Part shown: positions 14,967-54,051 of the stretch, one piece after another | Layout: the number at the start of each line of letters is the position of its first letter | Numbering within the stretch: position 1 is the stretch's first letter | From: Candidatus Omnitrophota bacterium | GTDB lineage: Bacteria > Omnitrophota > Gorgyraeia > JABMRG01 > JAFGKX01 | Direction of reading: 5' to 3' | NCBI GenBank assembly: GCA_043797125.1 | Contig: JAZDPX010000013.1 | Coordinates: forward strand, 9,180 to 73,179 | Length of the DNA stretch: 64,000 nucleotides | Notes under the pieces: model-generated | Seen by the model: the letters and a program-made list of their open reading frames with translations, nothing else | What the model was told of the DNA's origin: nothing | Database searches by the model: none | Translations under genes and position numbers: made by a program

Positions 14967-14991
14967 GTCATCCCCGCGAAAGCGGGGATCC
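14967..14991. repeat. repeat A: GTCATCCCCGCGAAAGCGGGGATCC (GC stem, GAAA loop)
   Basis: Exact copy that abuts the stop of the TPR gene. Confidence 0.85.
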
Positions 14992-17600: not shown

Positions 17601-18248
17601 TTATCTTTTCCTTCTGAATAAAAGCCCTGCCGCGCCTAATCCAACTAACGCCAATGTAATAGGCTCGGGATTTGCTTGCGCGTCATGCGACGGCGGAACA
17701 AATTTATTATTAGGATTGCCACTGTTTGAAAAATAATACCCGTATGCGTCTATATGTAAGCTGTTAAGGCCTGAAGATGTTACATTGAATTCTAAGATGG
17801 TTCCGTCGGCTGTGCCGCTGCCGGGCATATCCTGCACCGTTTCTGATCCCAAAGGAATATAGCCAAGCGAATGTTCCGCATAATAAGCCGGATATATCCC
17901 GTGAGGCGGCAGTGAGGATGTAAACGGCTCGCCATCTATGGTGTAAGTTTTGAAAGGCGTACCATGCGCAAACGTAGAATATGTATAATAATCATTCGTG
18001 CCATCAGGATTAACGGTTATTGAACCTGCATTGTCGTCACCGGTCGCAAATGTCAAATATACGCCGTATAAATCCTTGTTAGCCGCGATAAACCAAAGCT
18101 CAAAATTGGTTGACCCAAAATGCCAGCTCTGGTCAGCGTCTACATATGTGCCGCCGGGTATATATACCTGCATATCAGGAACAGCATACGCGTTCGCGGC
18201 GAATAACAACCCCAGCACCATTAGCGCCAATAATAATTTCGTTTTCAT
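17601..18248 (-). CDS. PEP-CTERM sorting-domain secreted protein
   Basis: Signal peptide MKTKLLLALMVLGLLFAANAYA, and the C-terminus is NPEPITLALVGLGAAGLLFRRKR. Confidence 0.85.
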   Translation of the reverse strand: MKTKLLLALMVLGLLFAANAYAVPDMQVYIPGGTYVDADQSWHFGSTNFELWFIAANKDLYGVYLTFATGDDNAGSITVNPDGTNDYYTYSTFAHGTPFKTYTIDGEPFTSSLPPHGIYPAYYAEHSLGYIPLGSETVQDMPGSGTADGTILEFNVTSSGLNSLHIDAYGYYFSNSGNPNNKFVPPSHDAQANPEPITLALVGLGAAGLLFRRKR

Positions 18249-19024: not shown

Positions 19025-19798
19025 TTATCTTGCTCCTCTTCCCGCCGCTACAACAAAAACTGTCCTGAACAATATCCTCACATCCGTCATCAGGCACATT
19101 CTTTTTATATATAAAAGGTCATACTTTATTTTCTTCCTTACGTCCTGTATGGTCTCATCGTATTTGTGCCATACTTGCGCAAGACCGGTTATGCCCGGCT
19201 TTACCGCGTATCTTTTTCTGTAATCAGAAATTTCCTTGCTAAGCGTTTTTACAAAAACAGGGCGTTCGGGCCTTGGGCCTACAATACTCATCTCGCCGCT
19301 TAAAACATTAAAAAGCTGCGGTATCTCATCGATATGCGCTTTTCTTATTATCTTGCCGAATTTAATAAGGCGGGGGTCATTCTCTCTTGCCCAGATGGGG
19401 CCTGTTTCTTTTTCAGCGTCAAGTTTCATCGTGCGGAATTTGTATATATCAAAAAGCTTGCCACTTCTGCCCATTCTCTCTTGTTTATAAAAAACCGGAC
19501 CCGGCGAAACAATTTTAATCAGCATTGCCGTTAAAAGCATAATAGGCGCTGTAACAACTAAGCCTACAGATGCTACTGTTACATCAAAGCATCTTTTAAA
19601 TTCCTCGAAGCGCTTTCTGGCAAACCTGATCACCCAGCCAATAATGCCTGTTGATATCAAAGCAAGACTGCTTGGTTCAGGAGCTATTACGCGTCCGGTG
19701 CCGTTTTGGGCATAAACAAGCTCTATCATGTAGAACGCGAATAGGCCTAAAAATAAAAACAGAATTGCTAAATTAAGGTGGGCTTTAATTCTTTTCAT
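19025..19798 (-). CDS. polyprenyl-phosphate sugar phosphotransferase (bacterial sugar transferase, EpsB/WbaP C-domain type) with PEP-CTERM-like N-terminal anchor
   Basis: Catalytic-domain motifs (SPGPVFYKQERMGRSGKLFDIYKFRTM, IVGPRPERP). The N-terminal 63 aa are a signal-like helix followed by APEPSSLALISTGIIGWVIRFARKR. Confidence 0.8.
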   Translation of the reverse strand: MKRIKAHLNLAILFLFLGLFAFYMIELVYAQNGTGRVIAPEPSSLALISTGIIGWVIRFARKRFEEFKRCFDVTVASVGLVVTAPIMLLTAMLIKIVSPGPVFYKQERMGRSGKLFDIYKFRTMKLDAEKETGPIWARENDPRLIKFGKIIRKAHIDEIPQLFNVLSGEMSIVGPRPERPVFVKTLSKEISDYRKRYAVKPGITGLAQVWHKYDETIQDVRKKIKYDLLYIKRMCLMTDVRILFRTVFVVAAGRGAR

Positions 19799-19943
19799 AA
19801 ACTGCGCGTAATGATTTCTGACTTAGATCTCTTTGCTTTCGCGAATAACGCCTTGCTAAAAGATATATGCCGAATCCGTCTTTCACGTCCTCCAAAACTT
19901 CTTTTATTTTTTCTATCATTTCTTTCATTTTATTTCTCTATTT

Positions 19944-19996: not shown

Positions 19997-20013
19997 AAGC
20001 ATATTCCGTGCCA
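19997..20013 (-). promoter_or_regulatory. sigma-54 (-24/-12) promoter upstream of sugar-transferase/PEP-CTERM operon
   Basis: The minus strand reads TGGCACGGAATATGCTT, with GG and GC at the canonical 12-nt spacing. Confidence 0.6.
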
Positions 20014-20207
20014 GAATGCCTTTTTTGGCATAAAAAATCACATGTACAAAGTTTTCTATCTTATTGCAAATAAAGGAGTTACAACCTAAGATTTTCTGAT
20101 AATATCCAACAAACTATGACAATATAGGACTGTCATTGATAGGTGATTGGATTAGATTAGACACTATTTGGAGTGGGTGTTCACTTGCGTGGACATGAGA
20201 ATATTTT

Positions 20208-20232
20208 GTCATTCCCGCGCAAGCGGGAATCC
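20208..20232. repeat. repeat A variant (GTCATTCCCGCGCAAGCGGGAATCC)
   Basis: Immediately upstream of the abiEi -35 element. Confidence 0.85.
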
Positions 20233-20307: not shown

Positions 20308-20949
20308 ATGAACTATAACGAATTCAAAAAAGAAACACAAAATCAGCCGCTTGTTTTAAGCAGCGATCTTTTAGCTCTTAAAGAAAGCAAACAGGCCATC
20401 CGCAACCAGCTCGAACGCTGGCGCAAGAAAAAGCTGCTTATCAGGCTTAAGCGCGGCGTATTCCTGCTTAATCAAAGCGATAGGAAACTAAACATTTCCA
20501 GGGCTTATATTGCCAATCAGTTATATAGTCCGTCATACGTAAGCGTGGAATATGCCCTTAATTATTACGGCTTGATTCCTGAGCGAACAAATGATTTAAC
20601 CAGTGTCAGCGCCAAAAAAACTTTGCGTATTGTAAACGAAACGGGAAACTTCATCTACCAGCATATTAAGCCGCAGGCTTTCAGGGGATTTAAAGCGCAA
20701 AAAGACGACGCCGGGCTTGCCTTTTTTATTGCTGTGCCTGAAAAGGCAATTGTTGATTTTATTTATTTAAACCTTAACAAGTTTAAGGTTCAGGATAAAA
20801 GTATCTTTGAAGAATCCTATCGTTTTCAAAATTTAGAGGTTTTAAAAACGAAAATCATTATGGAATTCGCCAAGGGTTTTAATAGTGATAAATTATTGCG
20901 CGTGTGTAAACTTTTTTGTGAATTCGCGAAGAAAGAAGGTGCAAAATGA
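20308..20949 (+). CDS. AbiEi-family antitoxin/transcriptional regulator (type IV TA)
   Basis: N-terminal wHTH region and AbiEi-like layout. The gene is paired with the downstream nucleotidyltransferase by a 4-nt overlap. Confidence 0.6.
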   Translation: MNYNEFKKETQNQPLVLSSDLLALKESKQAIRNQLERWRKKKLLIRLKRGVFLLNQSDRKLNISRAYIANQLYSPSYVSVEYALNYYGLIPERTNDLTSVSAKKTLRIVNETGNFIYQHIKPQAFRGFKAQKDDAGLAFFIAVPEKAIVDFIYLNLNKFKVQDKSIFEESYRFQNLEVLKTKIIMEFAKGFNSDKLLRVCKLFCEFAKKEGAK

Positions 20950-21755
20950 TAGAAGTTCTTAAGCAATATATTGCCGCGGAAGCGTCGAGTGAAAAAAAGG
21001 CTAACCTACTAAGAGAGCTGCTTCAGCTTTTATTCCTGAAAATATTGCATGATAAGGGGTATTTTGCAAAAATTGCTTTTGTCGGCGGTACAGCGCTTAG
21101 AGTATTGTATGATACGAGGCGCTTTTCAGAAGATTTGGATTTTTCACTTATTGATAAAAAGGGCTATAGCTTCTTAGCGATGATTTCCGCGTTAGAGCGC
21201 GAATTGGGCTTAAATGGTTTGAAAATAAGCGCGAAAACAAAAATCGCAAAAACTGTCCAGTCCGGTATGCTTAAATTTCCCGGGCTTTTACAGCAACTGG
21301 GCTTATCTGCTGTTAAAGAACAGAATCTGTCCATTAAAATTGAGCTTGATTCCAACCCGCCTTCCGGATGGCAGCTTGAAAATACGCTTATTAATAAAAC
21401 GTATGTATGCAATATCACGCATTTTGCTCTGCCGTCTCTATACGCCACTAAGCTTCATGCTTGTTTTTTTAGAAAGTACATCAAGGGACGGGACTTTTAT
21501 GACCTGATTTGGTATCTGGGTAAAAAAATCAAGCCTAATTATAAATTGCTTAATAACGCCATAAAACAAACGCACGGGGAATCCCCTGAATTAGGCGAAA
21601 ACAATATAAAAGATTTTCTTCTTAAGAAATTAGAAAAGATTGATTTTTGCGCGGTTAAAAAAGATGTGGAAAGGTTCCTTGAGGATGAAAACGAACTAAA
21701 GCTTCTGGAATTATCGATTATCTCAAAAAGCGTCAGGGATGTTTTCTCGTTATAA
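20946..21755 (+). CDS. AbiEii/AbiGii-family nucleotidyltransferase toxin (DUF1814)
   Basis: Conserved AbiEii motifs FVGGTALRVLY...RFSEDLDFSL. Confidence 0.7.
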   Translation: MIEVLKQYIAAEASSEKKANLLRELLQLLFLKILHDKGYFAKIAFVGGTALRVLYDTRRFSEDLDFSLIDKKGYSFLAMISALERELGLNGLKISAKTKIAKTVQSGMLKFPGLLQQLGLSAVKEQNLSIKIELDSNPPSGWQLENTLINKTYVCNITHFALPSLYATKLHACFFRKYIKGRDFYDLIWYLGKKIKPNYKLLNNAIKQTHGESPELGENNIKDFLLKKLEKIDFCAVKKDVERFLEDENELKLLELSIISKSVRDVFSL

Positions 21756-21924: not shown

Positions 21925-22542
21925 ATACTCCAGTTCTTCCACCACTCTCTTCATAAAATCCTTCAGCTCCACCAGCGTCGCTTCTTCGTTACTGCCCAGC
22001 GGCGCTGAAATCCTCACCGTCGCTCCACCGGCACGCCTGCCGAGCAGCTGATTAATCGCAAACAACGCCTGCTGCAGATAATAATTCTCCGTATAAAAAT
22101 TCCCAACCTTATAACAATAAAGCACTAACTCTTTTCCTGTATCATCCCCAATGTAAAGTTTATTGGTAAGGAATTTATATTTATCAAAACTCATCTCTTC
22201 GCTTTTTTTATCCAGTATCTTTAAGCCACTTCCTATCATGCACACTTCTGGCGGGTGAAACACCGAGCGGTTTGTCTCCGAATATATTATAAAGGCCCAT
22301 ATCTTTTCATTGGAAGGATTAATATATTCACGGAAGATTAAATTTCTCGTCTCTAAAATCTCGTAATCTCTTTCTTCTATCTTTATATCTTTCCCTTCCC
22401 ACTCGCCTAGTTTATATGGAAAGGTATGTATATCGAGTATGTCATGTGAGCTCTTCTGCTTGAAAAATAGATTAATAGAGAAAAAGCTGGCGACTACTAG
22501 CATGGTAATTATAATAATATAGCCGATTTTAGTTTTATTCAT
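21901..22542 (-). CDS. EpsI-family exosortase-associated protein
   Basis: Signal or anchor peptide (MNKTKIGYIIIITMLVVASFF) followed by a periplasmic domain, directly downstream of exosortase. ATG at 22542. The last 7 aa and the stop codon lie inside a repeat-A copy. Confidence 0.6.
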   Translation of the reverse strand: MNKTKIGYIIIITMLVVASFFSINLFFKQKSSHDILDIHTFPYKLGEWEGKDIKIEERDYEILETRNLIFREYINPSNEKIWAFIIYSETNRSVFHPPEVCMIGSGLKILDKKSEEMSFDKYKFLTNKLYIGDDTGKELVLYCYKVGNFYTENYYLQQALFAINQLLGRRAGGATVRISAPLGSNEEATLVELKDFMKRVVEELEYGFPLSRA

Positions 22543-23374
22543 GTTTATTCTCAAGCCCCTTCCCCACCCAAAACAACAACCCAAACGCCACCACGAATAC
22601 CATAAATCCCGCAAACCCATGAAAAAACCCGTTCGCCGCTTTTTCTCCATATAAATCATTTACTATGGAAACTGATGTTATTCGCAGGACATTAGAAAAT
22701 ATAGCTATTGGCACCGACGATAAAAGCAGCGTTGTCTTTTTAATATACGACGCCTTCATTGTAAAAGCAAAAACCAGGCCCAGCGTAAGCAAAGAAATCA
22801 AAGACCGCAAGCCACTGCAGGGATCTGCCACGAGAATAAAAGAATTTGGCATTCTTATGTAGCCGCCGTCTTTAATGGCCTGGAATCCAATCCTGTTAAG
22901 CAAAAACACCGAGCCATCCATAGCCAAAAGCTTAAGCCGCACAACCAAGTTTCCAATTAATACAAGTGGAAGCGGTATCATCGCCAATAAGAAAAATACA
23001 GGAAATATAAGGCATTTCGCTATTTCCTTTCCAAAGAAAAACAAAACCAACCCATACAGCGCGAATACAAATGAAAATCCCGATATAAAATAGACCTTAA
23101 GCGCCGCGCAGATAATATGTATCAACAAACTTGCGGCAATAATTATTACTCCCGACATCGAGCTTGACATTTTTGCTTTCTTAAGCAGCTCTTTCCTGCT
23201 CCACACAAAATACAGCGCCACTACCGGTATAAGCATCCCATGCCCGTAGTAGGACTCTTTGGCAAACCATCTGTCAATCATCCAATCCAGCATTGGAATA
23301 TAGGCGATTAGCAGCAATATCGCGCTTGAGGCAAATTGAATTATACGTTTAGTATTATCTTTCATTTTTGTCAC
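22535..23374 (-). CDS. exosortase (EpsH/XrtA family)
   Basis: Eight-TM protein with the catalytic motif LVADPCSGLRSL and conserved Arg (NVLRITS) and His (FHGFAG). Confidence 0.85.
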   Translation of the reverse strand: MTKMKDNTKRIIQFASSAILLLIAYIPMLDWMIDRWFAKESYYGHGMLIPVVALYFVWSRKELLKKAKMSSSMSGVIIIAASLLIHIICAALKVYFISGFSFVFALYGLVLFFFGKEIAKCLIFPVFFLLAMIPLPLVLIGNLVVRLKLLAMDGSVFLLNRIGFQAIKDGGYIRMPNSFILVADPCSGLRSLISLLTLGLVFAFTMKASYIKKTTLLLSSVPIAIFSNVLRITSVSIVNDLYGEKAANGFFHGFAGFMVFVVAFGLLFWVGKGLENKHE

Positions 23375-23868
23375 TCTGCCAATATTTCTTCTATTTTAAG
23401 TACAAAATCTTTCGCGTCTTCTATAATCCATTCAGCATCATCATTTGTAAGGATTTCGACGCCATACTGTTCTATAACCCTTTCCCCTTGCGCTTTATCA
23501 AGCGTTTCCGCGTATTTCTTCTCAAGCTGCTTTGCCTTTTTTATATAGTTGATATACTCTACTGCTACCTTTCCCCGCTCAACGTAGAATTTCTTAAAAG
23601 CAGCTATGGCGCAATAATGAGCTGTGGCACGAATGCCTATCTTATATAAAGCAGCTAAAACCGAATGATACATCGCATAATATCCGCAGATAACAGCCCA
23701 GTCAAATAAACCATTATCGAACATTATTTTCATAGCGCGCAAATTTTTATGCGCTTTATCGATATGCTGCCCTGCCCTTTCTGTGCTTACAGGCACCCTA
23801 TGAAGATTTGGCTTTCCCTCCCTGGGCTTAAAACATCCGCGTAAAGTCTTTTCTGTATCTTTAGGCAT
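23371..23868 (-). CDS. HEPN-domain protein (toxin of HEPN/MNT pair)
   Basis: Helical protein of 165 aa, overlapped 8 nt by the upstream nucleotidyltransferase gene. Confidence 0.55.
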   Translation of the reverse strand: MPKDTEKTLRGCFKPREGKPNLHRVPVSTERAGQHIDKAHKNLRAMKIMFDNGLFDWAVICGYYAMYHSVLAALYKIGIRATAHYCAIAAFKKFYVERGKVAVEYINYIKKAKQLEKKYAETLDKAQGERVIEQYGVEILTNDDAEWIIEDAKDFVLKIEEILAE

Positions 23869-24496
23869 ATGCCTTGCCTCCCTCTTTAATCAGTTGCCAA
23901 AATAAGAATTCATTATACAAAACAATCCTATCTTTCCACAAATCGGCGTAAAATTCGGTTTTTTTGCGGAAGCCCTCTGTAAATTTTTCAGTCGTAGTGC
24001 TTATCGGCCTTATTTCTAATAACGGGCCTACATCTGTTTTCGCCTCGTTCAACGCCGCTGTTATATCCTTCTCTTTGCCGGATACAACCGCCAGAATATC
24101 TATGTCGCTATCCTTAGACCACTCACCCCTTGCCACAGAACCAAAAAGAATTACCAGCTGGATTTTTTTGTTTGATAGTTTTATTATATCCTGAGCGTAT
24201 TTTTGCAATAACCGCGCTATTTTTTTATTGGAATCATAGAATTTCTTCTTTTTTTCTAGCTCTAAGTATTCAAATATCTTCAGAAGAGCCTCATTTTCAA
24301 GGTTAGGTTTAAAAAATACCATATTTGATACTTCCCGCCTTTGGAACATATCGTCTTTTACAAATAAACGCAAGGAGTTGTCTACGTTATTTAACGAGAC
24401 TTTCGATAGGCGGGCAATTTCCCTAAGATGTATCTCTTTAAACGGATTTTTTAGAAAAACCTCCAACACTTTCTTTCTCATGATTGGTATCAACAT
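23861..24496 (-). CDS. minimal nucleotidyltransferase (MNT) with N-terminal HTH (antitoxin of HEPN/MNT pair)
   Basis: GSVARGEWSKDSDIDIL nucleotidyltransferase motif together with an N-terminal HTH. Confidence 0.7.
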   Translation of the reverse strand: MLIPIMRKKVLEVFLKNPFKEIHLREIARLSKVSLNNVDNSLRLFVKDDMFQRREVSNMVFFKPNLENEALLKIFEYLELEKKKKFYDSNKKIARLLQKYAQDIIKLSNKKIQLVILFGSVARGEWSKDSDIDILAVVSGKEKDITAALNEAKTDVGPLLEIRPISTTTEKFTEGFRKKTEFYADLWKDRIVLYNEFLFWQLIKEGGKAYA

Positions 24497-33557: not shown

Positions 33558-35004
33558 TTTTCTTACTTTTTTGCTCTTCTATAATTATCTGTTTTGACTT
33601 AAAAATACATGCAGTCAATATCCAGAAAAGACCGGTTACTTCCTGACTATCTAAGCGCGTACCAAACATATTACACACTAATAATCCTACGGTACCGGCT
33701 AAAAAACCCAAAGCAAATGACTTTATAAACGTATCTTTAGTTCTGCGGTAAACAAACCATGCATTTTTTAGTATAAGCAGCATAATCCACAAGAAAACCA
33801 TTAACCCCACTAAACCCAATTCAGCCGCCAGGGTAATATAGGTATTGTGAGAATCTACCTTATGTATAGACGCATAACTGGATATAGTTGATGGAAAAAG
33901 ACCGTAACCTATACCAAAGAGAGGGTGCTCTTCAATCATCAAGATTGCACCCTCCCATATCGTTATTCTTCTCTGCGCGCTCGGCTCAAGGCTATCTTTA
34001 ACATCACCTTGCGCTGCTTGACCTTCTTCTAAAAAGGTGGAAGAAAACCTCTCGTAAAGAGCAGAGGGCATCAGTTTAGGGTTTAATACAACAAAAACAA
34101 GAGAGAAAATAAGTAAAATAAAAATTATTTTATTCCTGATAAACGTCATAAATAAAATCGCAAATAAGAAAGCTGCAATTGCTCCTCGGGAAAATGTATA
34201 CATCAATGCGCGCGCCTGAACTAAAATAGGAAATATTAAGAACCAATGTTTAAATGAACGCAGATTATTTAAGAAAATAGCGAATAGAATGAGTCCATAA
34301 TAGACAAAAAAAGCGCCGGCACGGTTTGGTTGGCCAAAGATTCCGGAGACGCGCATTTTATCAAAGTCTTCCGCTCCCCTCACTCTCAAATATTCAAAAA
34401 CCAAGAGAAAAGAAATACAAACCGTAATCAATACTACTAAGCTTACGATACGCCTGATCTCATCCTTATCTTTTACAGATATTAAAAATACATAAAACAA
34501 TAGCATCGGGCTAAGCCATTGTTTTAAAGAGGTAAAGAATTCCTCAAGATATACGTAACCTATGTTTTGGTAGGATACAAAGAATGAAATAATATTGATA
34601 ACGCAGAAAATTGCAATTGGAATACTAAGTGAGGATTTGGGGATTATGTTGATATTTGCCTTCATCTTTTCCATCAGAATAGCAATAATCATTAGTACAA
34701 AAAAGATATTCGTTAAATTCAAAGCCCATGTACCTGTGCCAAAATCCCCAGGTAAAAGCCTGCTGAAAGGCAAATATATTACGAATAATAAACTAAGTTT
34801 CCCAATATCTACTAAAGCCAGTAAAAATACAGCTGCTATGGTAATTATACCCAAACCCACAATTACCGGCTTGCTAAGGACAATGGTATTTAGAGAAACA
34901 AGCCCTAAGAAAATTAACCCTACAACAAACACAAAATATAAGAAATAATCATTAGAGCTATTTGCCCTGGCGATGCTTTTCTCTTTCATAGTTAATGTTT
35001 TCAT
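33523..35004 (-). CDS. O-antigen ligase/Wzy-like polymerase (exosortase-system-associated O-glycosylation ligase type)
   Basis: At least ten TM helices and a Wzy_C-like loop (FSRGAIAAF). Confidence 0.6.
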   Translation of the reverse strand: MKTLTMKEKSIARANSSNDYFLYFVFVVGLIFLGLVSLNTIVLSKPVIVGLGIITIAAVFLLALVDIGKLSLLFVIYLPFSRLLPGDFGTGTWALNLTNIFFVLMIIAILMEKMKANINIIPKSSLSIPIAIFCVINIISFFVSYQNIGYVYLEEFFTSLKQWLSPMLLFYVFLISVKDKDEIRRIVSLVVLITVCISFLLVFEYLRVRGAEDFDKMRVSGIFGQPNRAGAFFVYYGLILFAIFLNNLRSFKHWFLIFPILVQARALMYTFSRGAIAAFLFAILFMTFIRNKIIFILLIFSLVFVVLNPKLMPSALYERFSSTFLEEGQAAQGDVKDSLEPSAQRRITIWEGAILMIEEHPLFGIGYGLFPSTISSYASIHKVDSHNTYITLAAELGLVGLMVFLWIMLLILKNAWFVYRRTKDTFIKSFALGFLAGTVGLLVCNMFGTRLDSQEVTGLFWILTACIFKSKQIIIEEQKSKKNEKNKNTIRNR

Positions 35005-36170
35005 TGATAGAAAACCTTATTGATGCTTGCCTTAATCTTTGCCGGCAATAATAATTTAGTGAATCGAAAAAGGCAAATCTTTAATCGTAAACATTCAATC
35101 AATATGATTCCCTTGATATTTGTTGAAGCAACTATATTCTGCTTTATTCTTACATCATTAGACCAGCGCATTTTATGCAATTCCTCACCCCTTAGCATAT
35201 CACATACTTTAATTCCATTATTTATTGCATATTCTAATATATAACCCATAAGCAATTGCCCAACGCCATATTTAACAAATTTCGGGTTAAGCCCTGATTG
35301 ATAGAAATAATAAATATCTTTATAGCTAAAACCGCATTTCGCAGCTACATCATTTCCGTCGAGATTTAAAAAAAATAGGTACATCCATTTCTTCTCACCG
35401 AATAAAGCACGTATCTGTTTATAGAACTCTTTATATTTATTATCGCTGAAGCGGCTGAAAGTATTCTTTTGCACCCTTCTTAGTGAATGTAGCTTTATAA
35501 ATTTCTCAAATTCAGCATCAGAAATAAAAGCATCATTGGATTTACGAATATTTAATTCCTTAAAATGCTTCTCTATCTTTCTCCTCCCTCTTTTTATATT
35601 TATCTGCATATTTTTCGGTAATGACTTTATATACTTATCCCAACTGCTCGGCAGCTGCACAATAGGACAAAATGGCTTTTTCTCTGTAATAAGATATGTG
35701 GTTTTAGTGTTATTAAATATATCAATTAAGCAGGAAATGTTAAGTGATGGCTTCGCCAAATCAAAGATTGCTAGCATATGCCATTTTCTTTCTCTATAAA
35801 CTAAAAAATCCCAAAAAGCCTGCATAACCTGCCTCTCTTCTCCTTTTGCACAAATAAAATCTAAGTATTCAGAAGTGACGCCCCCTCCACAACCTAACAT
35901 TTTTAATTCTGCCATATATATAATACCGAGAATTTTTGTACTCTTTATATACAAAGGTGCTATCCCCTGGAGTAATCCATTTTCATTTCTTAGGGCAAGG
36001 GTATAAAGTTCTTTATTACCGCCATAGACTTGCCACCACGCATAAAGCCATTCCCATGTAAGAAAAACGGTATCGCTATGGCTATTGTCCAATAATGCGC
36101 CCCATCCCCCCCTTAATGCCTGGAACTTTTCTGGTGTATCTATGATTTCTATGTTATAATTCTCATTCAT
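35001..36170 (-). CDS. FemAB-like/GNAT acyltransferase (PEP-CTERM-locus FemAB-related type)
   Basis: Acetyltransf_6/FemAB-like architecture of 389 aa, in the locus position typical of this family. Confidence 0.5.
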   Translation of the reverse strand: MNENYNIEIIDTPEKFQALRGGWGALLDNSHSDTVFLTWEWLYAWWQVYGGNKELYTLALRNENGLLQGIAPLYIKSTKILGIIYMAELKMLGCGGGVTSEYLDFICAKGEERQVMQAFWDFLVYRERKWHMLAIFDLAKPSLNISCLIDIFNNTKTTYLITEKKPFCPIVQLPSSWDKYIKSLPKNMQINIKRGRRKIEKHFKELNIRKSNDAFISDAEFEKFIKLHSLRRVQKNTFSRFSDNKYKEFYKQIRALFGEKKWMYLFFLNLDGNDVAAKCGFSYKDIYYFYQSGLNPKFVKYGVGQLLMGYILEYAINNGIKVCDMLRGEELHKMRWSNDVRIKQNIVASTNIKGIILIECLRLKICLFRFTKLLLPAKIKASINKVFYQ

Positions 36171-41373: not shown

Positions 41374-42577
41374 CTTGAAAGACTTCCTCTATCAGTTTCT
41401 CCACTATCTTTATATCATATCTAGACTGAATATATTTATAGCCTTCTTGACTTAATCGCAGCCCCAATTCAAAGTTGTTCATTAAATTCACACAACTTTT
41501 TGCAAAACTGTTCACGTCATCCGCTAAAATGCCATGCACACCGGAGGTTATTCCTAAGCCTTCCGCTCCAATAGAAGTAGAAACTACGGGCCTCCTACAG
41601 GCTAAGGCTTCTAAAATTTTAATCCGTGTTCCTCCCGCAATTCTTAGCGGTACCACCACAAGCGAACTGTTCTCATAATATGGGGCTACATCGGGAACGG
41701 AAGGAAAAAGAAAGACTGATTTATCGTCTGCAAGTTTTAAAACTTCTTCCTTTGGAGCCATCCCGACTATATGAAATTTTACCTGAGGTTCCTTTTGTTT
41801 TATCAATGGCAGTACATCTTTCACAAACCATCTTACTGCATCTACATTTGGACCGTATGAAAGAAGCCCACAGAATAAAATTATCTTTTTACTGTAAGTT
41901 GCCTTATTAAAATCAACTATATTATCGTAGGTAGAGATATTAACAGAATTCGGAATAACGCTAATATTCTTAAGTAGCCTTTCTTTTCTAAGATAATGGC
42001 TGTCTTTATCTGAGCAAACCAAAACACTTTGGAAAAACTTGAGTCTCTTATAGTAGCTTCTCAATAACCAATTATTGTATTTTCTTCGTAATTTATCATA
42101 TAAATTTTTACTTTTAGTTAAGCTTATTTTACGACTAACCTTTATAAATTCAATATCATCTAAATCTACTATTGCCTTGCTCTTAATTTTATGTCTATTT
42201 TTAATGAAATATTGCGCTAAATCTATATGGCGAGTAAAAACTATATCGAAATTATGCGTGCTAATGATTTCTAGGAATTTACGATTTACTCCCTCAGAGT
42301 ATCTTTCATAAATTTCCCAAGGAATTCCCTTAAGTAAGTTCTGTGTTCTTTGCCATTTATTTATCTGTTCTAGTTTTAATCGATCGCTAACGGCAGGATA
42401 AAACCACATATTTTTAAAATATTGTACGTTTTTCTGATGATCGTCATTGTTAGATGCTAAATAAAACATGCTTAATTCATGTTCACGATAAAGACTCCTC
42501 ACAAAGTTCCAAATCCTTATTCTACTACCACAATTTAGGGGAAATGGTGGCTGGTTTTCTAGAATCAGAATCCTCAT
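41360..42577 (-). CDS. GT4 glycosyltransferase
   Basis: GT4 C-terminal domain (RIKILEALACRRPVVSTSIGAEG). Confidence 0.7.
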   Translation of the reverse strand: MRILILENQPPFPLNCGSRIRIWNFVRSLYREHELSMFYLASNNDDHQKNVQYFKNMWFYPAVSDRLKLEQINKWQRTQNLLKGIPWEIYERYSEGVNRKFLEIISTHNFDIVFTRHIDLAQYFIKNRHKIKSKAIVDLDDIEFIKVSRKISLTKSKNLYDKLRRKYNNWLLRSYYKRLKFFQSVLVCSDKDSHYLRKERLLKNISVIPNSVNISTYDNIVDFNKATYSKKIILFCGLLSYGPNVDAVRWFVKDVLPLIKQKEPQVKFHIVGMAPKEEVLKLADDKSVFLFPSVPDVAPYYENSSLVVVPLRIAGGTRIKILEALACRRPVVSTSIGAEGLGITSGVHGILADDVNSFAKSCVNLMNNFELGLRLSQEGYKYIQSRYDIKIVEKLIEEVFQDVTS

Positions 42578-44639: not shown

Positions 44640-46547
44640 TTACAAAACTGGCACTTTAATTTCTGTGTTACAAATATACTCCCTATGCCACATCTCAAAC
44701 ATAAACCATGCCCAGATGAGGCGCCAGTTTTGCAGGTATTTCCCGCTGTAAAATTGTTCAATTGTCTTTTTTACAAATTCTATATCAAAGTAGGTATGTA
44801 TGCTGCTGTCAGATGACAAAACATGATCTAAAATCATATCTTTAAACTCATTTCTCATCCATTTTCTGTAAGGAGGCTCAAAACCTGTCTTGCGGTTTGT
44901 TAAAACATAATCCGGCAGGTGCTTCCCAAAAGTCTTTTTCAGTATGTACTTTTTTATTGGGTTAAATACACCTTTAATCTTATACTCAAGCGGAATAGTA
45001 GAAATAAAATCCATAACCTCAATATCCAAAAATGGCGTTCTGAATTCCATTGAGCTGGCGCTAAGCATACGGTCTACTTTAACAAGCAAATCATCCTGAA
45101 GGAAAAACAAAACATCTTTATAGAGAAGTTGATCTATAAAATCGCTTCTGTTTGATTCAGAGAACCATTTGCTGTTTATTGCTAAAGAAATATCGCCGTT
45201 TATCTGTTTTTTAAAATCATCATTGTAAATCTTTTCCTTTTTTGAATAAGGCAGAATATCTTTTCTGGTTGAGAAGCGTTCATAAAGCGACAGGCATTCA
45301 ATTTTGGTGTTCCTGATTATTTTTTCGCAAAGGACATTATTCGTTTCCATGGTACATATTGGCTTTAAAAGCGGGCTTAAAACTCTGCATCTTAAGACCT
45401 CCGGCAATAAGCGCAGCTGCTTTTTCCATTCCGCATAAACTATACTGCCGCCTAAAAGCTGATCTGAACCGTCTCCTGTGAATACCACATCAGAATTTTT
45501 ACTGGCAACTAATCCGCCATAATAAGTAGGGATTGCCGAGGAATCATAAAACGGCAAATCAGTATGCCTAATTATTTTGGGCAGGGTATCTTTTGCCATT
45601 TCTGCATCCACTACTACATCGTGCATCTGGACATCTAAAAAGTTTGCGGTTTTTTTGGCATACGGGAGCTCGTCATACTCTTGGTCATCAAAACCAACTG
45701 AGAAAACATTAAATTTTTTATTTAACACCTGTTTCATAAGAAAGGTAACTACGCTTGAATCTATGCCGCTGCTTAAAAATGCGCCTGCGTTGCTTTCTCC
45801 TTCAAGACGTTTTTTTACTGATTTTGCTAATAAACTGTATAAACTTTCAGAGCACTCTTTCTCATTAAGTTTTATATCTACGGACTTACTATTGTATTTC
45901 CAATAGGGTATAATTTTGGTTTCATCATTACTACAAATAAGAAAAGAGCCTGCCGGCACCTGTTTAACTCCTTTGAAAAGCGTGTCAGGGCAAGGCACAT
46001 CATGAAGCGTAAAATAGGCATCAATGCTTATTGGGTCAATCTCTCTTTCAATGCTTGGATCTGCCAAAATTGCCTTTATTTCCGAACCAAAGATTATGGA
46101 GTCTTGCTTCTGGTAGTAATATAGGGGTTTATTGCCTGAATGATTCCTGGCTAAAATAAGCTTACGGCTAATCCCATCCCAAAGACAAAAAGCAAACTCG
46201 CCATCTATCAATTTAATAAAATCTTCTCCGCGTAAATCGTAAAGCATTGTTAAGATCTCTGATTCCGCTTTCTTAGAAAGCGATCCGTTTTCACCAGGGA
46301 TTAAAGAGCATAGTTCTTTCTTATTAAAGATTTTACCGTCTAACACACACCAAAGATTTTTTCTGCCATCATGCCCTGATTGGACATCGCGCCTGGAATA
46401 TTGTACTGCCAGGCCTATATTATTATTAATATAGGCCTCTCTAAAATGCGGGCCTCTATGCTTAATCGTGCTCGACATTTTGTTGAGTAAATCGGGGCTT
46501 ATCAGGTCCTTTGAGTTATAATTATATATCCCGCAAATTCCGCTCAT
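44640..46547 (-). CDS. asparagine synthetase (glutamine-hydrolysing) family amidotransferase, EPS-locus type
   Basis: N-terminal nucleophile region (SGICGIY) and the PP-loop SGGIDSS. The Cys is residue 5 of the called start, not residue 2. Confidence 0.8.
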   Translation of the reverse strand: MSGICGIYNYNSKDLISPDLLNKMSSTIKHRGPHFREAYINNNIGLAVQYSRRDVQSGHDGRKNLWCVLDGKIFNKKELCSLIPGENGSLSKKAESEILTMLYDLRGEDFIKLIDGEFAFCLWDGISRKLILARNHSGNKPLYYYQKQDSIIFGSEIKAILADPSIEREIDPISIDAYFTLHDVPCPDTLFKGVKQVPAGSFLICSNDETKIIPYWKYNSKSVDIKLNEKECSESLYSLLAKSVKKRLEGESNAGAFLSSGIDSSVVTFLMKQVLNKKFNVFSVGFDDQEYDELPYAKKTANFLDVQMHDVVVDAEMAKDTLPKIIRHTDLPFYDSSAIPTYYGGLVASKNSDVVFTGDGSDQLLGGSIVYAEWKKQLRLLPEVLRCRVLSPLLKPICTMETNNVLCEKIIRNTKIECLSLYERFSTRKDILPYSKKEKIYNDDFKKQINGDISLAINSKWFSESNRSDFIDQLLYKDVLFFLQDDLLVKVDRMLSASSMEFRTPFLDIEVMDFISTIPLEYKIKGVFNPIKKYILKKTFGKHLPDYVLTNRKTGFEPPYRKWMRNEFKDMILDHVLSSDSSIHTYFDIEFVKKTIEQFYSGKYLQNWRLIWAWFMFEMWHREYICNTEIKVPVL

Positions 46548-47988: not shown

Positions 47989-48261
47989 CTATTTTCGTTT
48001 TCTAAGCTTGAACATTCCCAACCCTGCTAAACCTACGCCGACTAGCGCAAGAGTTGCCGGCTCGGGATTGTGCGGCGCTCTGCTTGAGCCGCTGCCAGAG
48101 TCGTATGAGCTGCTGCTTGAGTTTTCGGCAAACATAGTGCCTTGCGCTCCCGATGATGATCCGTCGGAAAAGCCGGCGACTTCACTTGCCTTCTCGTTGC
48201 AGCCAGTTAGCGCCAGAGTCGCTGCTATGCAGCAGGCTAGCACTACTAATTTATATCCCAT
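47989..48261 (-). CDS. small PEP-CTERM lipoprotein
   Basis: Lipobox LALTGC, a Ser/Gly-rich middle, C-terminus NPEPATLALVGVGLAGLGMFKLRKRK, and a GAGGAGG SD. Confidence 0.75.
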   Translation of the reverse strand: MGYKLVVLACCIAATLALTGCNEKASEVAGFSDGSSSGAQGTMFAENSSSSSYDSGSGSSRAPHNPEPATLALVGVGLAGLGMFKLRKRK

Positions 48262-52581: not shown

Positions 52582-52598
52582 AAGCATTATCCGTGCCA
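52582..52598 (-). promoter_or_regulatory. sigma-54 (-24/-12) promoter upstream of the Wza/Wzz/kinase export operon
   Basis: The minus strand reads TGGCACGGATAATGCTT. It shares the core TATATAAGCAT-T-ATCCGTGCCA with the copy at 19997. Confidence 0.6.
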
Positions 52599-52764: not shown

Positions 52765-54051
52765 ATGCAACACAAACTAGCACACCACCATAAAATGCTT
52801 CAGAAAATGGCTCTTACGCCTCAAATGAAGCAATCTATCCAGCTTTTGGGTATGTCTACAAAGGACTTAAATGAATATGTTGATGCTGCGTTAGAAAAAA
52901 ATCCATTTTTAAAAAAAGAGATTACAGCGCCAAGGACTGCCAAGGCTTCGGATGATGACTACGATTACACTGCAAACATACGCCAGGAAGAAAATCCCCG
53001 CATGAACTTTATTTCCCAGCTTGAAATAATGGATATTGAAACAGGCTTGTTGGACATTGCTAAATACCTTATATATGAAATGGATGATAATGGTTATATT
53101 AATATTGATTTAGAAGATGCTGCGCAGGAACTTGCTGCTGATACGACTGATATTGAGGCAGCGCTTGCCATTGTGCAGTCAATGGAGCCGGCAGGCATTG
53201 GCGCAAGAAATATTCAGGAGTGTTTGAGCCTGCAGCTTAAAAGAAGGGGCAAGGAAGATTCTGTTGAGTACAGGATAGTGAATGGGTTCTTAAATGAGCT
53301 TACTAGAAATGATGCTGAAAAAATAGCGAAACAACTAAAAATAAGCAGCCAACAGGCTGAAACCGCGATTAAGACTATAAAGCTGCTTAACCCTCGGCCA
53401 ACGAGCACTCTTTTTAGTAAGGAAGCTCATGCTGTAACGCCTGATTTAATTGCAGAGGTTGGGGGCAAGAAATTGCGCCTGTGGCTGAACAGGCAATGGC
53501 TGCCTAATATTACATTCTACAATCCTTATGAGGACGAACCTGAAATAACCGAGGATGCAACAGCAAAAAAATTCATTACGGAGAATAAGCAGGCTGCCAA
53601 AGGCCTGATAGACGGCTTAAAGAGGCGCGAGGAGACTTTGCTTAAGGTAGCGCAATATCTGCTGGGTTTTCAGCTGGATAGCTTCATAGACGAGAGCCGG
53701 CACATAAAAAGCCTCGCGATAAAAGATGTGGCTTCTGCCTTAAAAATGCATACTACCACAATAAGCAGGACCGTTTCCCACAAATATGTGCAGATAAATA
53801 ATCAGACCATGCCGTTAAAGGGCCTGCTAAGCGGGGAAATCAAGAATAAAGACGGGCAAGTTACATCAAAGGCATCTATCAAAACTAAAATTAACGCGCT
53901 TGTTAAAGCTGAGGACAAAACGCATCCTTTAAGCGATAAACAAATAAAAGAATCTCTCGAGAAAGAAGGCATCTCCATTAACCGGCGCACCGTAGCAAAA
54001 TACCGCGACTCGCTGCGCCTTTTGCCTGCGCATTTAAGAAGAAAATCGTAG
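52765..54051 (+). CDS. rpoN: RNA polymerase sigma-54 factor
   Basis: Region I (MALTPQMKQSIQLLGMSTKDL) and a C-terminal RpoN box (NRRTVAKYRDSL). Confidence 0.9.
   Translation: MQHKLAHHHKMLQKMALTPQMKQSIQLLGMSTKDLNEYVDAALEKNPFLKKEITAPRTAKASDDDYDYTANIRQEENPRMNFISQLEIMDIETGLLDIAKYLIYEMDDNGYINIDLEDAAQELAADTTDIEAALAIVQSMEPAGIGARNIQECLSLQLKRRGKEDSVEYRIVNGFLNELTRNDAEKIAKQLKISSQQAETAIKTIKLLNPRPTSTLFSKEAHAVTPDLIAEVGGKKLRLWLNRQWLPNITFYNPYEDEPEITEDATAKKFITENKQAAKGLIDGLKRREETLLKVAQYLLGFQLDSFIDESRHIKSLAIKDVASALKMHTTTISRTVSHKYVQINNQTMPLKGLLSGEIKNKDGQVTSKASIKTKINALVKAEDKTHPLSDKQIKESLEKEGISINRRTVAKYRDSLRLLPAHLRRKS

Follow-up and report, generated by a model that had tools for sequence, protein, structure and literature searches.

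The stretch analysed here, 64,000 nucleotides of contig JAZDPX010000013.1 from a Candidatus Omnitrophota bacterium (the window in the following), carries on its minus strand a gene for a small phosphoglycosyl transferase (PGT) in which a segment of the PEP-CTERM type, i.e. an exosortase sorting signal, is placed ahead of the catalytic domain. We refer to the encoded protein as PEP-PGT. Its sequence is identical to that of P0001, a protein of an NCBI metagenome-assembled genome of Candidatus Omnitrophota, which is annotated at NCBI as exopolysaccharide polyprenyl glycosylphosphotransferase, a name that derives from TIGR03025. The gene and its parts are arranged as follows.

19025..19798, minus strand: PEP-PGT gene, 257 amino acids, identified by Pfam and NCBIfam matches
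19709..19798, minus strand: signal-peptide-like helix (first transmembrane helix, residues 1-30) made up of MKRIK, 21 hydrophobic residues and VYA/Q (the slash marks the putative cleavage site), based on conservation and a helix at residues 2-29 in an AlphaFold2 (AF2) model
19685..19708, minus strand: variable periplasmic linker, residues 31-38, with a column entropy of 1.5-3.4 bits
19607..19684, minus strand: PEP-CTERM-type module, residues 39-64, with APEPSS, the helix LALISTGIIGWVI and the basic cluster RFARKRF, matched by TIGR02595
19673..19681, minus strand: Pro-Glu-Pro codons (CCT GAA CCA), read directly from the sequence
19028..19603, minus strand: monotopic PGT catalytic domain (Bac_transf), residues 66-257, from PF02397 and PglC/WbaP structure matches
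19508..19597, minus strand: PglC-type re-entrant membrane helix, residues 68-97 (KRCFD...TAP85...LIKIV), aligned to residues 10-40 of 8E37
19325..19330, minus strand: codons of the catalytic dyad Asp157-Glu158 (in HIDEIPQL), invariant in 96 sequences and pairing with LDELPQ of PglC

The catalytic part was readily assigned. Pfam PF02397 (Bac_transf) covers residues 68-250 with 225.8 bits (gathering score 27), and PglC and WbaP structures match the catalytic domain with E-values between 1e-33 and 1e-29. Residues 67-251 align to the PglC structures 8E37 and 8G1N from PglC residue 10 onwards (E = 1e-33), and at the start of the re-entrant helix FKRCFD...TAP85 is paired with LKRVID...TSP of 8E37. 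K68, D72 and P85 are invariant in an alignment of 96 family members, on which all statements about residue conservation below are based, and the same holds for D157, E158 and the residues of the PRP motif, P175, R176 and P177. To judge from these alignments, PEP-PGT is a monotopic PGT with the whole PglC fold from residue 67 on. The protein is predicted to be catalytically competent, as the DE dyad, P85 and the PRP motif are intact, and by alignment residues 68-97 should adopt the re-entrant geometry. The catalytic core is also modeled with confidence by AF2. TIGR03025 (EPS_sugtrans) was passed marginally, with 297 bits against a cut-off of 295.55 and a match confined to positions 257-445 of the 445 in the model, whereas the score with TIGR03013 (EpsB_2), 272.9 bits for model positions 253-443 only, is below the cut-off of 393.35; PEP-PGT is outside TIGR03013.

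The first 66 residues are an addition ahead of this PglC-like core. The signal-like helix has a conserved n-h-c pattern and ends in x-Y-A/Q, with Y29 present in 91% and A30 in 99% of the sequences and C, S, A or V at position -3, a pattern from which cleavage of a signal peptide after A30 is predicted. The linker that follows has 2.5-3.4 bits of entropy in columns 32-38 and occupies the slot where the cargo would sit; long-form relatives have exported domains of 35-250 residues at this place. Residues 39-63 read APEPSSLALISTGIIGWVIRFARKR and show the tripartite structure of the sorting signal, APEP-SSLALISTGIIGWVI-RFARKR, with a hydrophobic helix of 15 amino acids. TIGR02595 (PEP_CTERM) matches residues 39-62 with 17.7 bits against a curated cut-off of 16, at an E-value (0.005) that is modest for a single sequence, and the score with Pfam PF07589, 19.9 bits, falls slightly short of the gathering score, 20.7. 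The PglC fold begins about four residues past the basic cluster. The module is not C-terminal as in PEP-CTERM proteins, and because about 195 residues (64-257) lie downstream of it, PEP-PGT is not classed as an ordinary PEP-CTERM protein. An earlier note on this DNA had described a small PglC/WbaP-type PGT with an extra N-terminal anchor of the PEP-CTERM type, and on the scores given for TIGR02595 and PF02397 this description is accurate. The idea, raised in the same note, that the motif is reused as the re-entrant anchor is unsupported, since the PglC re-entrant helix is separately present at residues 68-97 and the PEP helix spans the membrane in addition to it.

The motif is kept throughout the close family. 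All of the 120 closest homologues (63-78% identity, about 258 amino acids, Omnitrophota wherever named) have it at the homologous position, as PEP in 112 and as PEA or PEV in 8 cases. Relatives of one long form carry PEP (or PEA/PEV) at the homologous offset in 103 of 116 cases, and PE[P/A/V] is found at a fixed offset in 223 of the 236 relatives examined. The distance from PEP to Asp72, the Asp of the re-entrant helix, is 36 residues in 109 of 125 sequences and 37 residues in the other 16. P40 and E41 are invariant (zero entropy), P42 is proline in 91 and alanine in 5 of the 96 sequences (95%, 0.3 bits), and G54 and R61 are invariant as well. TIGR02595 independently matches 49 of the 96 family members at E <= 0.01, and precomputed Pfam annotation lists PF07589 together with PF02397 on some of them. 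A profile of the 42-residue module alone was searched against a set of 5.8 billion proteins; the 81 candidates scored were all short PF07589 PEP-CTERM proteins, a result that confirms the identity of the module and is neither a count of the family nor a survey of fusions with other enzymes. A contig scan with an alignment of the junction returned, among the matches listed, only ordinary PGTs of other phyla and none with PEP; the first junction alignment used for it was too diverse, and the scans are not to be read as a taxonomic survey. In relatives that have lost the motif the loop sequence has drifted freely, which argues that retention of PEP elsewhere is selected. As far as sequence comparison can tell, P-E-(P) is under strong purifying selection. 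In spite of the modest score of the single sequence, this comparative evidence puts the match to the module far beyond chance. The PEP-CTERM segment in PEP-PGT is real, and the initial observation is both confirmed and strengthened.

Relatives were collected with a profile run exhaustively against 1.84 billion cluster representatives and by a search seeded with one long form. In the long forms exported domains precede the PEP-helix-basic-PGT junction, the spacing of which is unchanged. The clearest order is that of P0130 (458 amino acids), in which choice_anch_N (53.8 bits) is followed by PEP_CTERM (21.8 bits) and the PGT. P0128, P0129, P0154 and P0164 have internal TIGR02595 matches of at least 17 bits, and all five proteins start with signal peptides. 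Internal TIGR02595 matches are present as well in a group of about 480 amino acids and in several further forms; P0154 is from Elusimicrobiota, and an intermediate group of about 282 amino acids has a linker of about 35 residues. In a rough neighbour-joining tree, PEP-bearing and PEP-lost two-helix forms share one clade of small PGTs, which is separate from the WbaP/EpsB-type enzymes of about 460 amino acids that have no PEP segment. A sister clade (L096, L098, L101, L103; L numbers denote loci, P numbers proteins) has lost PEP and kept both helices and the basic cluster. Relatives devoid of both transmembrane helices and of PEP exist too (L106, P0151). Judged by these sequences, small monotopic PGTs encoded in exosortase loci form a large family, which is found mainly in Omnitrophota and has relatives in Elusimicrobiota. 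In the comparison with EpsB/TIGR03013 homologues proposed in the earlier note, the large PGTs of about 460 amino acids lack a PEP segment, also where they lie in exosortase loci (L047, L088). Fusion with a PEP-CTERM gene, one of the explanations offered there, gains support as the evolutionary origin from the cargo domain ahead of the junction in P0130 and from the helix-free enzymes of L106 and P0151. In L006 (8322-11377) the long form comes after two cargo genes, and its fused module, IPEPGTLLLFGTGLLGMIG..ARKRF, closely matches the ends of the neighbouring cargo proteins, PEPGSMLLFGTGLIGLIG..RRRFF. This suggests a recent exchange or a common constraint among the PEP-CTERM segments within one genome.

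PEP-PGT is the only PGT found within the 64 kb window, of which the part from about 12 to 54 kb is a complete XrtA-type PEP-CTERM/exopolysaccharide (EPS) cluster. The genes of most importance here are the following.

22535..23374, minus strand: XrtA-like exosortase, 279 amino acids; TIGR02602 168 bits (cut-off 105.6), TIGR04178 70 bits
21901..22659, minus strand: exosortase-associated EpsI; TIGR02914 79.5 bits (cut-off 42.8), PF11984 90.7 bits
18245..19024, minus strand: PEP-CTERM cargo gene 1, beginning right at the PGT stop codon; TIGR02595 26.9 bits, tail TPEPASVILLGLGALGFGALRRKRRI
17601..18248, minus strand: PEP-CTERM cargo gene 2, choice-of-anchor N; NF038141 101.4 bits, TIGR02595 21.5 bits
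16908..17480, minus strand: PEP-CTERM cargo gene 3; TIGR02595 22.1 bits
13182..14609, minus strand: sigma-54-dependent response regulator, PrsR-like; TIGR02915 (PEP_resp_reg) 351.7 bits, below the cut-off of 502.6
52765..54051, plus strand: rpoN (sigma-54) at the far end of the EPS/exosortase cluster, with Sigma54_AID, Sigma54_CBD and Sigma54_DBD

The exosortase scores 178 bits with the XrtA model, below the cut-off of 208, and the PEP-PGT gene follows those of exosortase and EpsI at 2-3.5 kb in the downstream direction. The order exosortase, EpsI, a variable insert, PGT and PEP-CTERM genes recurs in L001, L003, L004, L005, L091 and L092. Exosortase and EpsI are encoded 1-9 kb upstream of the PGT in the window, in these six loci and in L006, and PEP-CTERM genes adjoin. 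For a count, loci with at least 5 kb on both sides were compared, on the basis of a metagenome scan for which a PEP-lost relative served as the seed and of local hidden Markov models for exosortase and EpsI. An exosortase was nearby in 7 of 10 loci with PEP-bearing PGTs versus 6 of 66 generic PGT loci. The rule that loss of PEP tracks absence of the exosortase fits L008 and is contradicted by L096, L098, L101 and L103.

The insert between epsI and the PGT gene is in the window an AbiEi/AbiEii toxin-antitoxin pair (20308-21755, plus strand); in other genomes the same slot holds 23S_rRNA_IVP, ORF6N, AbiEii or a methyltransferase, i.e. small genes of the mobile or defence type. A HEPN/nucleotidyltransferase pair (23371-24496, minus strand) is located directly upstream of the exosortase gene. 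The 14-nt hairpin CCCGC-N4-GCGGG (mostly CCCGCG[AC]A[AG]GCGGG), a REP-like or terminator-like repeat, has eight intergenic copies in the window (at 14973, 19950, 20214, 21857, 21906, 24759, 26032 and 47964) against 0.04 expected, and those at 20214 and 21857/21906 flank the AbiE insert. The remainder of the cluster comprises Poly_export, Wzz/GNVR, an AAA_22 ATPase, sugar-nucleotide enzymes, Wzm/Wzt, glycosyltransferases of the stp1/stp2 type, Wzy_C, an amidotransferase resembling that of XrtA systems, a FemAB-like GNAT protein, TPR proteins, a PocR/GAF protein, the sigma-54 response regulator and a deacetylase. Between the sugar-nucleotide genes and a tyrosine-kinase-like ATPase gene sits a mini PEP-CTERM open reading frame (ORF) of 90 amino acids (47989-48261, minus strand; PF07589 26.8 bits), which has hardly any cargo domain. 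The FemAB-like GNAT acyltransferase (35001-36170, minus strand) and the asparagine-synthase-type amidotransferase (44640-46547, minus strand) could, by analogy with the FemABX cross-bridge of sortase systems, provide the glycan with an amine-bearing group, and may in this way be a clue to the exosortase acceptor.

The region upstream of the PGT gene adds three further elements.

19998..20013, minus strand: sigma-54 promoter TGGCACGGAATATGCT, 70 nt upstream of a small ORF, with GG/GC elements invariant in six aligned Omnitrophota loci
20116..20145, minus strand: upstream block CACCTATCAATGACAGTC..TGTCAT containing the palindrome ATGACA-N9-TGTCAT, conserved in five of six loci
19785..19928, minus strand: conserved upstream ORF of 47 amino acids, overlapping the PGT start by 14 nt, with the peptide kept in L001 and L004

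The promoter pattern is matched exactly at 19998-20013. A second exact TGGCAC-N5-ATGCT occurs at 52583-52598 (minus strand), upstream of the Poly_export gene. With up to three mismatches allowed, the palindrome has two matches in the window, the exact one and one with three mismatches at 42439-42456, compared to 0.05 expected; the block at 20116-20145 is a probable binding site for an enhancer-binding protein. The response regulator listed above, whose position is kept in L001, L003, L004, L005, L091 and L092, is the probable activator of the PGT promoter. From its arrangement, PEP-PGT is apparently co-transcribed with the three PEP-CTERM cargo genes from this conserved promoter. A sigma-54 promoter with an upstream site and about 70 nt between promoter and first start codon has been described for PEP-CTERM genes, the promoter "boxes" having been reported for Proteobacteria only (Haft 2006, PMC1569441). 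PEP-PGT thus resembles a PEP-CTERM gene in promoter, leader and sorting module, and differs from it by the enzyme behind the signal.

The small upstream ORF has a length of 38-61 amino acids in different loci (L001 9880-9996, L004 9810-9995) and the motif EIKKDIxIYLAIxRYxR, and no Pfam family matches the 47-residue peptide of the window. Some homologues have a cytoplasmic helix ahead of the signal-like helix: in L003/P0102, P0058, P0087, P0096, P0106, P0111 and P0120 the small-ORF peptide precedes helix 1 as an in-frame fusion, and in the PEP-lost sister clade this helix is fused as well. In L106, which sits right after exosortase and EpsI, and in P0151-type enzymes the PGT core follows it directly and the extra helices are absent. 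The 47-residue ORF is probably the detached N-terminal cytoplasmic helix of an ancestral PGT. The simplest history compatible with these sequences would be that a signal-peptide/PEP-CTERM cassette was inserted between the cytoplasmic helix and the re-entrant helix of a PGT in an exosortase locus and that the old N-terminus survives in the lineage of the window as a separate small ORF.

What could a sorting signal do on a cytoplasmic enzyme? In the topology that we infer, the N-terminus would be cytoplasmic, helix 1 would lead outward, PEP would be exposed at the periplasmic face and helix 2 would lead back inward, leaving RFARKRF and the catalytic domain on the cytoplasmic side, where the uridine diphosphate (UDP)-sugars are. 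This arrangement would suit a PEP-CTERM signal and a PGT alike. The Cys/Arg/His site of exosortases is thought to act where the PEP loop would lie, and to our knowledge exosortase recognition is the sole known function of a PEP/helix/basic module. With slightly better than even confidence, we propose that the neighbouring exosortase recognizes the module, by docking and probably by cleavage, and that glycan initiation is in this way coupled to protein sorting. This appears to be the best explanation in view of the known function of the module, the purifying selection and the cargo of the long forms, which would need release. The adjacent exosortase would read the PEP-helix-basic module as it does on cargo and thereby dock the PGT at the sorting machine. 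It would then probably cleave at PEP, and the leaving group would be a membrane-anchored PGT (helix 2 plus enzyme) rather than a stub of 20 residues. Initiation of undecaprenyl-phosphate-linked glycan would hence be coupled to PEP-CTERM sorting in space and possibly in stoichiometry. Conservation of the motif in more than 200 relatives suggests that protein sorting is linked physically and directly to the synthesis of a sugar polymer, and it is plausible that PEP-PGT is exosortase-processed, as the earlier note had also considered. More tentatively, and with less than even confidence, each cleavage of the module might license, relocate or tune the PGT, and the PGT-primed glycan, extended by the enzymes of the cluster, might itself be the acceptor onto which the exosortase transfers PEP-CTERM proteins. 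Glycosyltransferases, the FemAB-like acyltransferase, the amidotransferase and the deacetylase would build on that glycan.

A number of observations weigh against recognition and processing by the exosortase. With 21 residues, the hydrophobic core of helix 1 is longer than one would expect of a signal peptide that is cleaved. The AF2 model of the full protein is uninformative for residues 30-60 (pLDDT 43-62, and below 50 at residues 30-41); because of these low values and of a continuous helix at residues 52-97, which is implausible for a membrane hairpin, it was not used for topology. Cleavage by exosortases is biochemically poorly characterized. We found no exosortase within 6-10 kb of the PEP-bearing PGT in L007, L090 and L105, and in L096, L098, L101 and L103, that is in the PEP-lost sister clade, exosortase and EpsI are still encoded near the PGT, though on its downstream rather than its upstream side and 3-4 kb away, which indicates that the enzyme can function in exosortase loci without the motif. 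In L092 the PGT has PEA and the neighbouring cargo PEP, so that a covariation of the two, which we considered, is contradicted. Finally, the helix signature of the short forms, STGxxGW/RFARKRF, is family-specific, unlike GLGLLG/RRKR of the local cargo tails, and could have a role inside the PGT, e.g. in packing or dimerization. As an alternative, the module, once fused to the PGT as a PEP-CTERM gene, may now be no more than an exapted anchor, its helices forming a stable hairpin that positions the re-entrant helix, with the exosortase blind to it and PEP structural, for example in helix capping or loop geometry. It would fit with this explanation that both helices, the loop between them, the basic cluster and the exosortase neighbourhood are still present in the PEP-lost sister clade, that L106, lacking the extra helices, is also found beside an exosortase, that the helix signature is more conserved than typical cargo tails, and that additional N-terminal helices are common in PGTs, for example in the large WbaP-type forms. 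However, loop geometry hardly explains why P-E-(P) should be invariant beside a linker that is hypervariable, in more than 200 sequences down to below 50% identity, or why the loop drifts completely once PEP is lost, and the exported domains of the long forms, which are of kinds otherwise anchored by PEP-CTERM, would stay unprocessed on the inner membrane. We regard a pure anchor as rather unlikely; it nevertheless keeps appreciable weight on account of the PEP-lost loci with an exosortase, the PEP-bearing loci without one within 6-10 kb and the mismatch in L092.

The direction of action could also be reversed, with the short periplasmic tail of the PGT acting on the exosortase as a pseudo-substrate or regulator in its site, or with the N-terminal amine that is freed when the signal peptide is removed serving as the acceptor for cargo. 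The "cargo" of the short form has shrunk to about nine variable residues with the recognition element retained, the x-Y-A/Q site is conserved and the gene is apparently co-transcribed with cargo genes, all of which would agree with such a role. The proposal is purely speculative, though, and we know of no exosortase precedent for it; the conserved Gln at +1 would tend to cyclize and block the amine, and the long forms with their large domains do not fit an acceptor tail. We therefore consider it improbable. That a mini PEP-CTERM ORF and the PGT were merged by a frameshift or a wrong start call has a negligible chance. Mini PEP-CTERM ORFs do exist, as the 90-residue example at 47989-48261 in the window illustrates, and a separate small ORF is situated just upstream of the PGT gene; but the latter encodes the cytoplasmic-helix peptide and is different from the PEP segment, the spacing at the junction is fixed, and more than 200 independent assemblies (NCBI, JGI, ENA, Logan) have the ORF uninterrupted, which speaks against a frameshift between a tiny ORF and the enzyme. 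The homologue set refutes an artefact of this kind. Of the two outcomes that the earlier note had named as fatal to its observation, an ordinary hydrophobic anchor in the homologues and a frameshift, neither was encountered, since the homologues conserve PEP and the basic tail. Recognition of the module by the neighbouring exosortase, with the reservations set out above, is hence the interpretation that we prefer.

Since 2006, exosortases and PEP-CTERM proteins have been tied to exopolysaccharide loci by gene neighbourhood only. An exosortase signal covalently joined to the glycan-initiating enzyme would be the first physical hint of how sorting and EPS meet. A full-text literature search found no paper in which PEP-CTERM is combined with a fusion to a phosphoglycosyl transferase or a glycosylphosphotransferase; a cytoplasmic enzyme that carries a PEP-CTERM module in an internal position appears previously undescribed, the co-occurrence of PF07589 and PF02397 being visible in databases and uninterpreted. 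The family shows that a sorting signal whose definition places it at the C-terminus can be functional, or at least retained by selection, inside a protein, and it extends the monotopic PGT superfamily by a new membrane architecture in which two helices are combined with a re-entrant one. With about 260 amino acids, one invariant tripeptide and an easily measured enzyme activity, PEP-PGT is also a compact and testable construct.

When compared with known systems, PEP-PGT shares with PglC (PF02397; 8E37/8G1N) the whole fold, the basic start of the re-entrant helix, P85, D157-E158 and the PRP motif. PglC, however, has about nine residues before the re-entrant helix, and PEP-PGT has 66, which make up the signal-like helix, the PEP loop on the periplasmic side and another full membrane helix; owing to these extra N-terminal helices PEP-PGT is no longer purely monotopic. 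With the large WbaP-like PGTs of TIGR03013 and TIGR03025 it has in common the catalytic domain and the role in initiating exosortase-linked EPS, whereas only the C-terminal 190 or so of the 443-445 model positions are matched, and in place of their four-helix bundle and cytoplasmic nucleotide-binding-like domain PEP-PGT has the PEP cassette. PEP-CTERM proteins (TIGR02595/PF07589) start with a signal peptide, for which the signal-like helix of PEP-PGT is a candidate, share with it Pro-Glu-Pro, a helix of about 15 residues and the basic cluster, and resemble PEP-PGT also in the co-location with exosortase and EpsI and in the sigma-54 promoter with an upstream activator site. Their PEP-CTERM domain is near the C-terminus "virtually without exception" (Haft 2006, PMC1569441). 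PEP-PGT breaks this rule in that about 195 residues of cytoplasmic enzyme come after the module, and the exported part of the short form amounts to about nine residues. In the sortase/LPXTG and archaeosortase/PGF-CTERM systems a tripartite signal is cut at the outer face of the membrane and a helix with a basic stub is left behind; for streptococci, signalling roles of the leftover sortase stub have been reported. The logic of these systems (10.1101/2023.06.07.544157) is analogous to that proposed here, with the difference that their leftover is a short peptide, whereas in the case of PEP-PGT it would be the whole enzyme that makes the lipid-linked sugar primer.

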